Positions 24,068-29,239 of a stretch of 64,000 nt of DNA are shown here, in pieces. The position numbers and the translations under genes were made by a program. The number at the start of each line of letters is the position of its first letter. Position 1 is the stretch's first letter. The notes beneath the pieces are model-generated. The model was not told where the DNA came from, made no database searches, and worked only from the letters and a program-made list of their open reading frames with translations. The stretch is from positions 992,001-1,056,000 of the forward strand of contig CAVVPN010000004.1 of the NCBI GenBank assembly GCA_963750165.1, read 5' to 3'. This stretch comes from an uncultured Gemmataceae bacterium. GTDB taxonomy: Bacteria; Planctomycetota; Planctomycetia; Gemmatales; Gemmataceae.

Positions 24068-24141
24068 GGGCGTATAGCTCAGTTGGCTAGAGCGCAGCTC
24101 TGATAAAGCTGAGGTCCTTGGTTCGAATCCAAGTACGCCCA
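24068..24141 (+). tRNA. tRNA-Ile (GAU), CCA not encoded
   Basis: Cloverleaf gggcgta...tacgccc-a; anticodon arm cagct-ctGATaa-agctg; T-loop gttcgaatc. Confidence 0.95.
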
Positions 24142-24161
24142 TTGCGGTCCAGGCGACGAAC

Positions 24162-24234
24162 GGGGATGTAGCTCAGCTGGGAGAGCGCCGGTTTTGCAAG
24201 CCGGAGGCCACGGGTTCGAGCCCCGTCATCTCCA
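24162..24234 (+). tRNA. tRNA-Ala (UGC), CCA not encoded
   Basis: ggggatg...catctcc-a with a G3:U70 pair; anticodon arm ccggt-ttTGCaa-gccgg. Confidence 0.95.
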
Positions 24235-24281
24235 CAAAAAACGGTTGTGCCGGATATTTTGAAAATTCCGCGAAAGATGGA

Positions 24282-24310
24282 TTGACAGGGCTGGTGGTCG
24301 CGAGTAAATT
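24282..24310 (+). promoter_or_regulatory. Internal sigma70 promoter for 23S-5S
   Basis: TTGACA-17 nt-TAAATT downstream of tRNA-Ala. Confidence 0.65.
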
Positions 24311-24513
24311 AATGATGTAAGTTGTTTGATAAAAACAACTTACAGCCGTTCGGGTTCCAGCTGGTTGCGAGTCGCTGCACCCCTTCCACAAGGGAAGATT
24401 TTGGTGCATCGACTCCTGATCAGCAGAACGTGCGGCGACCCAATGCGTGGTTGCCAACGAACTGGTGAGGGCCTTCGGGCCAGCGTAATCCTGCTGGGAT
24501 TACGTCGGGAGTT

Positions 24514-24525
24514 TGTTCTTTGACA
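24514..24525 (+). promoter_or_regulatory. rrn boxA antitermination element
   Basis: tgttctttgaca. It is followed by ggtagcggtaagagttgc, which is complementary to gcaatctcttatcgctacc downstream of the 23S (processing stem). Confidence 0.75.
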
Positions 24526-25762
24526 ATTCGGTAGCGGTAAGAGTTGCAACTCACATAGAGCGCAAAGCGCTCACGTCTGGAACGCAAGTTCTAGGCGTGA
24601 AACTTTGCAGTTTCTTTGAGTCTCTGCAAGAGCCCTTAGAGAGAAAGGATCGTTACTTTCCCCTCAACTCTGGATCAGGGTTGGGGGACGGTAGCGGACG
24701 CGATCGCTCTTGGGCGGGGGGCACCCGCCGAGGAAACGATCAATGCGGCCAAGCTACTAAGGGCGTGTGGGGGATGTCTAGGCGCCAGGAGGCGATGAAG
24801 GGCGTGGAAGACTGCGATAAGCCCGGGGGAGCTGTCAAACGAGCGTTGATCCCGGGATCCCTGAATTAGCGTCCGCTGAATCCATAGGCGTACGCGGCAA
24901 ACGGGGGGAACTGAAACATCTCAGTACCCCTAGGAGAGGAAAGCAACCGCGACTCCGTCAGTAGCGGCGAGCGAAAGCGGATCAGCCCAAACCACCGGGA
25001 CATGTCCCGGCGGGGTTGTAGGACCGGACATATGGGAGTTACCAAGTTCTTGTTTAGCGGAACGATCTGGAACGTTCGACCATAGCGGGTGACAGTCCCG
25101 TACGCGACAGACAAGGACCTCCCGTTCGGCACCTGAGTAGAACCGGACACGTGAAAGCCGGTCTGAATCTGCGGGGCCCATCCCGCAAGGCTAAGTACTC
25201 CCTGGCGACCGATAGTGGACCAAGTAGCGCGAGCGAAAGATGGGAAGAACCCCTACCAGGGGAGGATAGTGAACCTGAAACCACATGCCTACAAGCGGTC
25301 GGAGCCCGACTGGACCCGCAAGGGTCCTGGGGTGACGGCGTGCCTTTTGCATAATGATCCGGCGACTTACCGTCACCAGCAAGGTTAAGCGCCTGTGGCG
25401 CGGAGCCGAAGCGAAAGCGAGTCCGAACAGGGCGTGCAGTTGGGGGCGGTAGACGCGAAACCACGTGAACTACGCATGGGCAGGATGAAGGGCGGGTAAC
25501 ACCACCTGGAGGTCCGAACTCACTAGTGTTGAAAAACTAGGGGATGACCTGTGTGGAGGATTGAAAGTATCATCAAACGTGGAGATAGCTCGTTCTCTCC
25601 GAAATAACTTTAGGGTTAACGTCTCATTAGTTGGCAAGGGGGGTAGAGCGACTGAATTCGGCAGGGGGCCTACCCGGTTACCCTCCGAAACCAAACTCCG
25701 AATACCCTTGTTCAAGGTGGGGCAGCTAGACGGCGGGGGATAAGCTTCGTCGTCGAGAGGGG

Positions 25763-25795
<33 letters not shown>

Positions 25796-25836
25796 CATGC
25801 TCAGTGCGAAAGGAAGTTGGACTCCGGTGACAGCCA

Positions 25837-25886
<50 letters not shown>

Positions 25887-26634
25887 TGGTCGAGGAGTCC
25901 TGCGCCGATAATGAACGGGACTAAGCATGACACCGAAGCAGCGGGTAGCGTAAGCTACGGTAGGAGAGCGTTGTAGCAGCCCGTGAAGGCGGACAGATAA
26001 TGACCGCTGGAGGTTCTACAAGTGATCATGCCGGAACGAGTAACGATAAAACGGGTGAGAATCCCGTTCGCCGAAAGCCTAAGGTTTCCTGGGGAAGGTA
26101 AATCCGCCCAGGGTTAGTCGGACCCTAACGCGAGGCCGAAAGGCGTAGCGGATGGACGGCAGGTTAATATTCCTGCACCACCTACGAAGGTTGATGGCGT
26201 CAGGACGCAGTACCGAAGGAGAGCACCCGGTCAGAAGTGGGTGTGCCGCAAGGCCGAGGCCGTATACGATGCCAAAGTCTTCGGAAGTCCTGACAAGAAA
26301 AGCCGACGCCGGACGACGTAGGTGCCCGTACTAAAACTGACACAGGTAGGCGAGATGAAGATTCTAAGGCGCTCGAGAGAACGCTCGTGAAGGAACTCGG
26401 CAAATTAACCCCGTAACTTCGGGATAAGGGGTGCCCTTGGCCTTGTTAAAGGGGCTGGGGGCCGCAGAGAAATGGATCTGGCGACTGTTTACTAAAAACA
26501 CAGGTCTCTGCCAACGCGCAAGCGGATGTATAGAGACTGACGCCTGCCCGGTGTCGGTAAGTTAAGGAAGAGGGTTAGCCAGTTTACTGGTGAAGCTCGC
26601 AACCGAAGCTCCGATAAACGGCGGCCGTAACTAT

Positions 26635-27370
26635 GAACCACTCGTAGTTATAAAATCTGGCTAAATGCTGGAACCCCTGAGTATCCGCTGGTACTCGCCC
26701 CGCCCAGGGGCAGTGACAATCCAGGCGGTGCAGGCAATCAGCAGGAAAGGCCGGTGTGCTGGATGCTGTTCGTGGATCGAATCCCTGAGTCCGTCGGTTA
26801 CTACTTTGCTGGTTTCGTGGATGGCGAAGGAAGCTTTAACATCAGCTTCCGCAAGCGACCCGACTACAGAATCCCTTGGAAAGTTTCGTTGTGCTTGAAC
26901 GTGTCCCAGAAAGACCGTTCAATCCTGGCCTTGCTCAAGGATCATCTTGAGTGCGGCACGATTCGTTACAAGTGTGACGATGTCTGGTTCTTCGAGGTGA
27001 ACAACCTCGTCTCCATTCACGGAAACGTCATCCCTTTCTTTGAACGCTTTCGCTTCCTATCCGCCAAGAAGAAACGCGATTTCGCGATCTTCAAGCGGAT
27101 GGCTAAACTTCTAGCTGAGGGAGCGCATCTGAACAAAGAAGGAATCGTCGAGTTACTTAAACTTCGACGGAAAATGAATGACGGCGGCAAACGCAAGTAC
27201 GACGATCAGGCGGTCTTGAATGCATTTGACATCCCGGAATCCTCAGAGACTATACGCCAGACCTCGGAAGCCAAAACTTCTGGGGATGATATAGTCCGAC
27301 CTGCATGGCGACATGCAGAGCTGGGCAGAAATGACCCGGCCCAACCTGCTCAAGGTTGAGTAACAACGTG
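26635..27370 (+). mobile_element. Group I intron L1917 (736 nt, IB-like) with homing endonuclease
   Basis: Interrupts gtaactat|gacggtcc. P1 taactaU:Gtagtta; P aaatgctgg; Q aatcagcagg; R tcagagacta (27243); S gatgatatagtcc; terminal G. Confidence 0.93.
26754..27359 (+). CDS. Single-motif LAGLIDADG homing endonuclease
   Basis: YFAGFVDGEGSF motif, VSQKD, K..DF..F, HL.KEG. Start could be 26754, 26763 or 26772. Confidence 0.92.
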   Translation: MCWMLFVDRIPESVGYYFAGFVDGEGSFNISFRKRPDYRIPWKVSLCLNVSQKDRSILALLKDHLECGTIRYKCDDVWFFEVNNLVSIHGNVIPFFERFRFLSAKKKRDFAIFKRMAKLLAEGAHLNKEGIVELLKLRRKMNDGGKRKYDDQAVLNAFDIPESSETIRQTSEAKTSGDDIVRPAWRHAELGRNDPAQPAQG

Positions 27371-27404
27371 GACGGTCCTAAGGTAGCGAAGTTCCTTGTC
27401 GGGT

Positions 27405-27674
27405 AAGTAACATTGCCCGGGGCAAGAGCGATCTTGTCCATTCAACCGGCTCAAATCGGTGGAGCCCTCCCGGCACTTGCAGGAGTGTCGCGGGTAATAC
27501 CGAGGGTAAGATTGCCCCAGCAATCCCCGTAACGACTCAGGGGTGAGATCCCTGGATGAAGCTTCCTGGCTTCATAATACGCCGGCCCTGACGACGCCCA
27601 ACGGTATGATCTTCTCAGTCATCCGCGTCAGGTGAACGTATAGTCTACGCCACGGGAAACCGTGGACAAGCGTG
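27405..27674 (+). mobile_element. Group I intron L1951 (270 nt, IA-like, no ORF)
   Basis: Interrupts tcgggt|aagttccgac. P1 cgggU:Gcccg; R cccgtaacgact; S gtatagtct; P9 ccacgggaaaccgtgg; terminal G. Confidence 0.9.
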
Positions 27675-27705
<31 letters not shown>

Positions 27706-28153
27706 CGGATCACTGTCTCCACGAGCGACTCGGTGAAACTGTAGTAGTCGTGAAGATGCGACTTCCCCGCAACTAGACGGAAAGACCCCGTGAACCTTTA
27801 CTGCAGCTTAGTATTGGGCTTAGGCCCAGCATGCGTAGCGTAGGTGGGAGCCTGTGAACCGTGATCTCCGGATCATGGGGAGGCGACAAATGAAACACCA
27901 CCCTTGTTGTGCTTGAGTTCTAACCCCGACCCGTGAACCCGGGCGGCGGACAGTGCTAAGTGGGCAGTTTGACTGGGGCGGTCTCCTCCTAAAAGGTAAC
28001 GGAGGAGTTCAAAGGTACCCTCAGCCCGGTCGGCAATCGGGCAGCGAGCGTAAAGGTAGAAGGGTGCTTGACTGCGAGTCCCATCAGACGAGCAGGTGCG
28101 AAAGCAGGACTTAGTGATCCGGCGGTGCTGGATGGAAAGGCCGTCGCTCAACA

Positions 28154-28189
<36 letters not shown>

Positions 28190-28225
28190 TCTGAGCGTTC
28201 ACAGCGGCGAGGAGGTTTGGCACCT

Positions 28226-28520
28226 TAACACATCGGGGTGCTGCGGCAGCAATGCCGTACCAACAAATCGGCTTATAACGGTGGACCCGTCCGTGGTGCT
28301 GTGATTGACCACACCACGCGGCAACACCGTGGGAAGTCTAACGTCAATTTGATTGACGGATGACCCCGTAACGACTGAGTCGAAAGACGAGAGTTTCCCG
28401 ATTCGGGAAGCTAATACGCCGACGCCTGCCAGCCCAAGTCAGGTTATGATCCGAGAGGATCTACGACCGACGGCAGGATGATGATATAGTCTACGCCACG
28501 AGAAACCGTGGAATTTGGTA
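28226..28520 (+). mobile_element. Group I intron L2500 (295 nt, IA-like, no ORF, 3'-terminal A)
   Basis: Interrupts ggcacct|cgatgtcggc. P1 caccU:Gggtg; P10 acatcg:cgatgt; R cccgtaacgact; S gatatagtct; P9 ccacgagaaaccgtgg. Confidence 0.9.
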
Positions 28521-28591
28521 CGATGTCGGCTCATCGCATCCTGGGGGTGGAGAAGCTCCCAAGGGTTTGGCTGTTCGCCAATGAAAGCGGT

Positions 28592-28629
<38 letters not shown>

Positions 28630-29017
28630 CCCTATCTGTTGTGGGCGCAGGAAGCTTGAGCGGTTCTCTCCCTAGTACGAGAGGATTGGGAGGGACGTAC
28701 CTCTGGTGTGCCAGTTGTCGCGCTAGCGGCACGGCTGGGTAGCCAACGTACGGCCGGGATAAACGCTGAAGGCATATAAGCGTGAAACCCCCCGCAAGAT
28801 GAGGCTTCCCTCTGCTTTACGCAGTGAAGGCTCCCGGAAGACCACCGGGTCGATAGGTCGGGTGTGTAAGACGGGCAACCGTCTCAGCTAACCGATACTA
28901 ACAGCCGAGCGCTTGACCGCATTGATCCTTTGCTCGGCGGCGCGTGGGTATGCCTCACGCCCCCAGCCCAAAGGGCCTTGCAGATCGCAATCTCTTATCG
29001 CTACCAATTGATATACG

Positions 29018-29120
29018 GCTAGTCATTAGTCATTAGTCATTAGTCGTTAGTTATCGAGGTTTCGGCCCTGGGCTGCGACCTAAATAGCTAAAGATTAGGG
29101 ACTAATGACTAAGGACTGGC
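29018..29120. repeat. Inverted arrays of heptamer tandem repeats in the 23S-5S spacer
   Basis: (agtcatt)3-agtcgtt on the left; gactaat-gactaag-gactggc on the right, complementary to it. Confidence 0.75.
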
Positions 29121-29129
29121 GATGTGACT

Positions 29130-29239
29130 TTCCGGTGAGCATACCTGAGTGGATACACCCGTTCCCATTCCGAACACGGCCGTTAAGCACTCTGGGCCCA
29201 TGGTAGTGTGTAAAACGCGAGAGTAGGTCATCGCCGGAA
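29130..29239 (+). rRNA. rrf: 5S rRNA
   Basis: ttccggtga...tcgccggaa terminal helix; cacccgttcccattccgaacacgg; gagagtaggt. Confidence 0.95.

Follow-up and report, generated by a model that had tools for sequence, protein, structure and literature searches.

An A-ending group I intron in the only 23S rRNA gene of a Gemmataceae bacterium and its apparent place in a widespread L2500 lineage

Few features of group I ribozymes are as fixed as the terminal guanosine (omega G), since it occupies the pocket of the guanosine cofactor. The question raised by the 23S rRNA gene of an uncultured Gemmataceae bacterium is whether one of its introns truly ends in A, how far such an ending is shared, and how a 3' splice site might be chosen with it. 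We analyzed a 64,000-nt stretch of the source DNA (the window; the 23S gene and its introns are on its forward strand). One full-length bacterial 23S rRNA gene lies at 24747-28920 (Rfam RF02541, 2429.2 bits, model positions 1-2925), and an RF02541 search of the whole genome, a 9.6-Mb assembly of 12 contigs, found this copy only. The gene exceeds the model length by ∼1.25 kb, and alignment to E. coli 23S rRNA (locus L001) placed three insertions in it, after U1917, U1951, and U2500, each of them a group I intron. The L1917 intron (736 nt, 26635-27370) ends in GUG, matches RF00028 at 22.7 bits, below the gathering score, and contains a LAGLIDADG_1 open reading frame at 26754-27359 (PF00961, E = 1.8e-17). 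Intronless relatives read CTAT/GACGG at this site (the slash marks the junction), so that the G at 23S position 1918 is native to the group and the boundary of the L1917 intron is exact. Position 1918 (window 27371) is A in E. coli and is G here and in all 14 of the relatives' loci that cover it (among L004-L022). A 34-nt exon (27371-27404, from the E. coli alignment) separates the L1917 intron from the L1951 intron (270 nt, 27405-27674), which also ends in GUG and has a core resembling that of the third intron. The last of the three, the L2500 intron (295 nt, 28226-28520), is without an open reading frame, appears to be of IA3 type, and has A as its last base. It lies within the peptidyl-transferase centre, as the preliminary description of this DNA had stated, at L2500 of the genome's only 23S gene. 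Two tRNA genes, the 23S gene, and a 5S gene follow one another at 24068-29239. Rfam found no 16S gene in any part of the 64 kb, and the rRNA genes of the source genome appear to be unlinked. A further RF00028 match was located outside the window (G000:C3:803389-803617, 34.1 bits, below the cut-off).

To place the last base of the L2500 intron, we compared its junctions, which read ggcacct/taacac...tttggta/cgatgtcggc (window 28226-28520), with the uninterrupted gene. Aligned to E. coli 23S rRNA, the insertion separates U2500 from C2501 with no base to spare on either side, and 17 loci of intronless relatives carry GGCACCT/CGATGTCGG at L2500, with CGATG after the junction. Any shift of the boundary would alter U2500 or C2501 of the conserved exon; the last intron base is thus A28520, and omega G is absent. 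The boundary is set independently by the exon sequence, by a perfect 6-bp P10, and by a 2-bp P9.0 (AC:GU), and P1 and P10 adjoin exactly at the A/C junction. The boundaries had been described beforehand as unambiguous and the intron as ending in A; the 17 intronless relatives and the abutting P1 and P10 bear out the former statement, and exon identity confirms the latter. By these sequence comparisons, the L2500 intron with a terminal A is confirmed as genuine. Omega G is best regarded as a near-universal rather than a defining feature of group I introns, one exception having been published previously.

The fold of the intron was examined in 33 related introns aligned with E-INS-i, 24 of which were also aligned with MAFFT (alignment A1, from which L091, on a long branch, and eight introns of more than 501 nt were omitted). 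The elements occur in the order P1, P2, P3, P4, P5, P6, P7, P7.1, P7.2, P3', P8, P7', P9.0, and P9. Across the 24 sequences of A1, the 61 pairs in 12 helices are paired in 97.1% of cells, compared with 86.1% in shuffled alignments, and none of 500 shuffles reached the observed value; pairing fell to 34-42% when the partners were slid by one to three columns. Compensatory changes were present in 27 of the 61 pairs of A1 and, together with the excess of pairing over the shuffles, indicate a ribozyme fold under selection. P1 is made by the exon strand 28220-28225, ending in U2500 (28225), and the internal guide sequence at 28236-28241, with a U.G wobble at the 5' splice site between U2500 and G28236 that is U.G in 23 of the 24 members. 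Directly adjoining P1 is P10, in which the intron strand ACAUCG (28230-28235) forms six perfect pairs with the start of exon 2 (C2501-U2506, window 28521-28526); 96.5% of its cells are paired in the 24 sequences. The P2 hairpin (28242-28259; 6 of 7 pairs compensatory) has a GNRA-type loop, and the 5' strand of P3 (28268-28272) pairs with its 3' strand (28418-28422, placed by A1), with 2 of 5 pairs compensatory and 99.2% of cells paired. These are followed by the P4-P5 domain (28278-28330; P4 28278-28283/28325-28330, P5 28287-28289/28319-28321) and the P6 domain (28331-28367; 100% of cells paired). Between P7 and P3' lie the P7.1 hairpin (28379-28388), with a GAAA loop and compensatory changes in all three pairs, and the P7.2 hairpin (28395-28409), which was drawn from the window sequence only. 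The P8 domain occupies 28425-28477 (stem 28425-28430/28472-28477, with compensatory changes in 5 of its 6 pairs and pairing in 100% of cells), and the P9 hairpin (28496-28511) shows compensatory changes in 5 of 5 pairs. The dinucleotide AC in J7/9 (28493-28494) is the 5' half of P9.0 and pairs with GU at 28518-28519, the first two of the three last intron bases GUA (28518-28520), so that the helix ends immediately before omega A28520.

The guanosine pocket was of particular relevance. The 5' strand of P7, A[C]GACUG (28371-28377), faces the 3' strand UAGUCU (28487-28492, placed by A1), and the G-binding pair is G28373-C28491, beside the bulged C28372; it is G-C in 24 of 24 members. The outer pair of P7 covaries, being A-U in 20 members and G-C in the 4 that show a minority form with a bulged A. 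Judged from the alignment, the pocket itself is unchanged, whichever base ends the intron. A search with RF00028 of a 346-nt stretch matched 28216-28512 (31.9 bits, E = 1.5e-6, against a gathering score of 50 bits) and put P3' in the wrong place. We had considered the bases directly after P7 as P3' and rejected them, as the family alignment has the P7.1 hairpin there and P3' at 28418-28422. In many members of CPR type (L083, L059, L025, L033, L074, and others), P2 and P3 are separated by an additional element of ∼40-60 nt (A1 columns 140-200), and the planctomycete introns are without it. Extra P7.1 and P7.2 hairpins between P7 and P3' are said to be an IA trait, as Michel and Westhof reportedly set out in 1990. 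On the basis of the P7 motif and these two hairpins, we assign the L2500 intron to an IA3-type subgroup. Introns of classes IA3.2 and IA3.3 are listed at LSU/2500 in Table 1 of Nawrocki et al. (2018, PMC6125680), and the accessible text of Prince et al. (2022, PMC8971849) gives the IA3 P7 motif as A_C_GACUG...UAGUC_U, with a minority form having a bulged A. The window intron resembles these published IA3 introns in its site and its P7 motif, and its family shows the bulged-A form as well. In the accessible portions of the two papers, in which the Greek omega is not a searchable character, no mention of the last intron base was found.

To determine how widely the terminal A is distributed, we examined relatives of increasing distance. 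Among 40 relatives, an L2500 intron was present in one genome only (G001, of the same family but another genus); this homologue is 408 nt long and ends in GUA. The 23S gene of that genome has no L1917 intron. In 400 further genomes of the phylum, many of them MAGs without rRNA genes, no non-T base before C2501 was found. A scan of GTDB with one genome per species found a base other than T ahead of C2501 at no fewer than 120 loci, from which proportions can be taken only roughly; among the matches listed, G occupied this position 79 times, A 39 times, and C twice. The 39 loci with A, again among the matches listed, comprised 36 introns, two exon variants without an insert (L060 and L094), and one locus that was cut off (L040), and all 36 introns have the same signatures as the window intron. 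By their records, the hosts of the A-ending introns are CPR/Patescibacteria, Gammaproteobacteria and Polynucleobacter MAGs, Gemmataceae, Planctomycetaceae, and one Nitrososphaerota MAG; some of these host labels may reflect binning errors, and the Nitrososphaerota intron is on a short contig. Homologous introns, to which the preliminary description had looked as a check on the terminal A, thus carry the same base in G001 and in the 36 introns among the matches listed. The preliminary interpretation was of the right kind but drawn too narrowly, as this is not a lone omega-A event: judged by sequence, the window intron is a member of a widespread L2500 lineage of IA3 type that mostly ends in A, its commonest last base.

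Several other features were encountered at or near the same site. Three archaeal records (L023, L065, and L097; Nitrososphaerales/Nitrososphaerota) have inserts at the L2500 site; one, on a 1.8-Mb chromosome record, ends in G, and another, which ends in A, comes from a 2.8-kb contig and could be a binning error. Some 23S genes of MAGs and metagenomes have no intron but differ by single bases in the catalytic centre (L060, L094, L029, and L106; L149-L256). These intronless variants (for example an extra A after U2500, U2500A, and U1951C) may be real or may be assembly errors; U1951C occurred in 21 loci among the 120 metagenome matches listed. In a genome of the same order, L005 (G026:C5) has an 864-nt intron ∼11 nt downstream of the L2500 site, with the insert after locus position 683, best placed after U2511 (GGCT/CA...GTG/CATCG); its core is of the same type, its last base is G, and it contains a LAGLIDADG-like open reading frame of 214 aa.

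The L1951 site served as a control. Within the window, the L1951 and L2500 introns are identical in 180 of 316 aligned columns and share the same P7, P3', P9, and AC:GU P9.0, but the L1951 intron ends in G, and its P10 looks weak (∼2 pairs by visual estimate) compared with the six pairs at L2500. The preliminary description had assigned a GTG end and an AC:GT P9.0 to both of the other introns. Both parts hold for the L1951 intron; for the L1917 intron the GUG end holds, whereas its J7/9 is GA and the AC:GU P9.0 was not found. When metagenome contigs were scanned at L1951, at least 120 loci had a variant base at the site. Among the matches listed, 97 were introns, all of which (97/97) end in G and none in A, the other 23 being exon variants; the AGUC strand of P7 was found within the last 45 bases of 95 of the 97 introns listed. 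The L1951 introns are of the same core type yet all those listed end in G, which indicates that the terminal A is a property of the L2500 lineage and not of the ribozyme type.

To follow the last base through the lineage, we drew a family of 33 introns from 67 full-length ones on the basis of position in a rough tree and end signatures. G is the terminal base of every one of the 34 introns not used: 19 belong to an Actinomycetes/Chloroflexi-type clade and 10 to a clade whose guide is GGGGCGCC, and there are 5 more besides. A is the last base in 22 of the 33 members and G in 11. In an IQ-TREE tree of the family, computed after the flanking exon sequence and the three terminal bases of each intron had been trimmed, the last base changes nine times on the maximum-likelihood topology (7-9 over the bootstraps), and the well-supported branches force at least three changes. 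The last-base label is not clustered beyond chance, 219 of 500 shuffles being as low. The window intron falls in a planctomycete group (support 86/84) together with A-ending (L044 and L057) and G-ending (L064, L068, and L080) members. On this tree, the terminal base has switched repeatedly between A and G in the L2500 lineage. In two G-ending introns, L081 and L054, the 3' ends read ...GUA+UAG and ...GUA+CUAG, and it looks as if a short extension gave a new terminal G to a formerly A-ending intron. Another G-ending member of the same family, an 832-nt L2500 intron in a Coxiella-like endosymbiont of an Ornithodoros tick (L043, NZ_VFIV01000003.1), is among the nearest relatives of the window intron (path 0.89).

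We then compared the last base with the helices adjacent to it. Tails were scored for the window and 120 loci among the matches listed (121 in total), P7' being required within 60 nt. P9.0 was complementary in 35 of 36 A-ending tails (AC/GU in 16, GC/GU in 14, AU/AU in 3, GU/AC in 1, and GU/AU in 1) and in 36 of 70 G-ending tails among the matches listed. Within the 33-member family, 21 introns end in A with P9.0 and 1 without it, and 1 ends in G with P9.0 and 10 without it. A scan of the columns of the 33-member alignment found only the bases at -2 and -1 to track the last base, and no core change that does so: G stands at -2 in 17 of 22 A-ending members and in 0 of 11 G-ending ones, and the corresponding counts for U at -1 are 20 of 22 and 4 of 11. 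Six contiguous P10 pairs were present in 18 of 22 A-ending members and in 6 of the 10 G-ending members scored. An independent-pairs test of terminal A against P9.0 gave three contrasts on well-supported branches, about two of them concordant and none opposite, too few for significance. The association of a terminal A with an intact P9.0 in these sequences is therefore suggestive and not proven, as the introns are related and provide only three independent contrasts.

How such an intron could be removed is a separate matter. In model introns, a change of omega G to A strongly impairs exon ligation, and A is without the contacts that omega G makes with the P7 G-C pair. Given this impairment and the unchanged pocket, efficient splicing is not self-evident. 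The first step should be ordinary, considering the canonical pocket, the U.G wobble, and the core: free guanosine in the unchanged G-C pocket of P7 would attack after U2500. In the second step, the 3' splice site would be positioned mainly by the 6-bp P10 (28230-28235/C2501-U2506) and the 2-bp P9.0 (28493-28494/28518-28519), guanine recognition would contribute less, and A would be tolerated at the last position. Ligation of the exons would then restore a normal peptidyl-transferase centre, and the terminal A would be a trait inherited within the widespread L2500 lineage, which spans CPR, Planctomycetota, Pseudomonadota MAGs, and others. We infer that the intron splices, with P9.0 and P10 compensating for the missing G; accurate exon ligation is expected of an insert that sits in the catalytic centre of a sole 23S gene, as an unremoved insert at U2500 would then affect all ribosomes. 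Overall, the stretch 28226-28520 is quite probably a working IA3-type L2500 intron with an omega A and a 3' site placed by P10 and P9.0. RNA data were neutral in this regard. Among the 24 sequencing runs listed, none held half or more of the words of the queried stretch and none was a DNA run carrying it; in 21 RNA runs, all metatranscriptomes of soil or groundwater, the share of sampled words was 0.32-0.36, and the exons make up ∼41% of the queried stretch, so that these shares could stem from exons of the organism or its relatives.

A further reading is that, throughout the L2500 lineage, the second step no longer reads the last base by means of the pocket, that P9.0 and P10 set the site, and that A has been selected; we offer it tentatively. 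A selected A could possibly suppress G-dependent side reactions (3'-site hydrolysis, circle formation, and reverse splicing) that damage the only 23S rRNA. If true, it would explain the majority of A, the repeated flips between A and G, and the absence of A at L1951. An intron that merely tolerates its A through P10 and P9.0 is the reading we prefer.

Splicing might instead fail to be accurate, with the intron kept in the mature 23S rRNA or excised without ligation to leave a fragmented working 23S. A terminal A should weaken the second step. For Simkania, a 23S rRNA in which a group I intron at L1931 remains unspliced has been reported (Everett 1999), and fragmentation of 23S after removal of intervening sequences is described as common in the accessible text of PMC4990558 and PMC11270868. 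Retention or scission at L2500 would, however, interrupt the core of the peptidyl-transferase centre at the U2500/C2501 step, in a genome with a single 23S gene. P10 and P9.0, which serve the second step alone, are nonetheless kept (six contiguous P10 pairs in 18 of 22 A-ending members, P9.0 in 35 of 36 A-ending tails among the matches listed), and the entire ribozyme core is under strong structural selection, all of which makes a failure of accurate splicing unlikely. We regard it as very improbable that the real 3' splice site follows another G, such as G28518, with a non-canonical mature rRNA as the result. The G at -2 in 17 of 22 A-ending and none of 11 G-ending members would fit such a site, but this G is already explained as the P9.0 partner of a conserved C in J7/9, and 5 of the 22 A-ending members are without it, ending in AUA, ACA, or AAA. 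Use of G28518 would also add or change two bases at 2499-2501, where CCU/CG is kept by 17 of 17 intronless relatives, and P10 adjoins P1 precisely at A/C. Less probable still is a sequencing or assembly error at A28520 or a dead rRNA copy, as the terminal A recurs in G001 and in 36 introns from independent assemblies among the matches listed, the genome has no other 23S gene and this one matches the full model at 2429 bits, and the intron core is intact.

The closest known case is the L1917 intron of Coxiella burnetii (Cbu.L1917), whose terminal base is reportedly A. It is described as one that "lacks the canonical omegaG", and the 23S gene of Coxiella has L1917 and L1951 introns around a 34-nt exon (Raghavan et al. 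2007, J Bacteriol 189:6572; as far as the accessible text goes). The gene studied here is similar in having a group I intron without omega G in a single-copy bacterial 23S gene, and in having L1917 and L1951 introns that flank a 34-nt exon. It differs in that its omega-A intron is at L2500, its L1917 intron ends in G, and the omega A at L2500 is common to a large cross-phylum lineage rather than to one species. The expectation of an omega-A group I intron at a site other than that of Coxiella was thus correct, the site being L2500. Judged by this insertion site, the L2500 intron does not qualify as a homologue of Cbu.L1917, and the L1917 intron of the window is a different element, with a LAGLIDADG open reading frame and a terminal G. 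In CPR bacteria, 23S group I introns are reported to cluster round the peptidyl-transferase centre at sites new to bacteria (Tsurumaki et al. 2024, PMC11270868), with insert ends that were estimated against E. coli and need not equal the spliced regions. Many of the A-ending relatives found here are likewise CPR/Patescibacteria MAGs. The accessible text of PMC11270868 does not discuss the terminal nucleotide, and the supplements of this paper and of PMC6125680 may list intron ends. Literature searches for a terminal A at L2500, for which the Greek omega was unsearchable, found none; those for 23S group I introns of Planctomycetes gave nothing relevant by title or abstract, and those for omega-A group I introns gave nothing relevant among the matches listed. 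As far as the literature can be searched, the A-ending branch of the L2500 IA3 introns is previously undescribed.

Pipelines that demand a terminal G or an Rfam cut-off will misplace or miss such introns in the 23S genes of CPR bacteria, planctomycetes, and others. A lineage that has an intact guanosine pocket, mostly ends in A, and resides in essential single-copy rRNA genes would amount to dozens of natural variants of the terminal base. This natural set holds close A/G pairs, with and without P9.0, and could be used to dissect the contributions of base recognition and of the helices to the choice of the 3' splice site.
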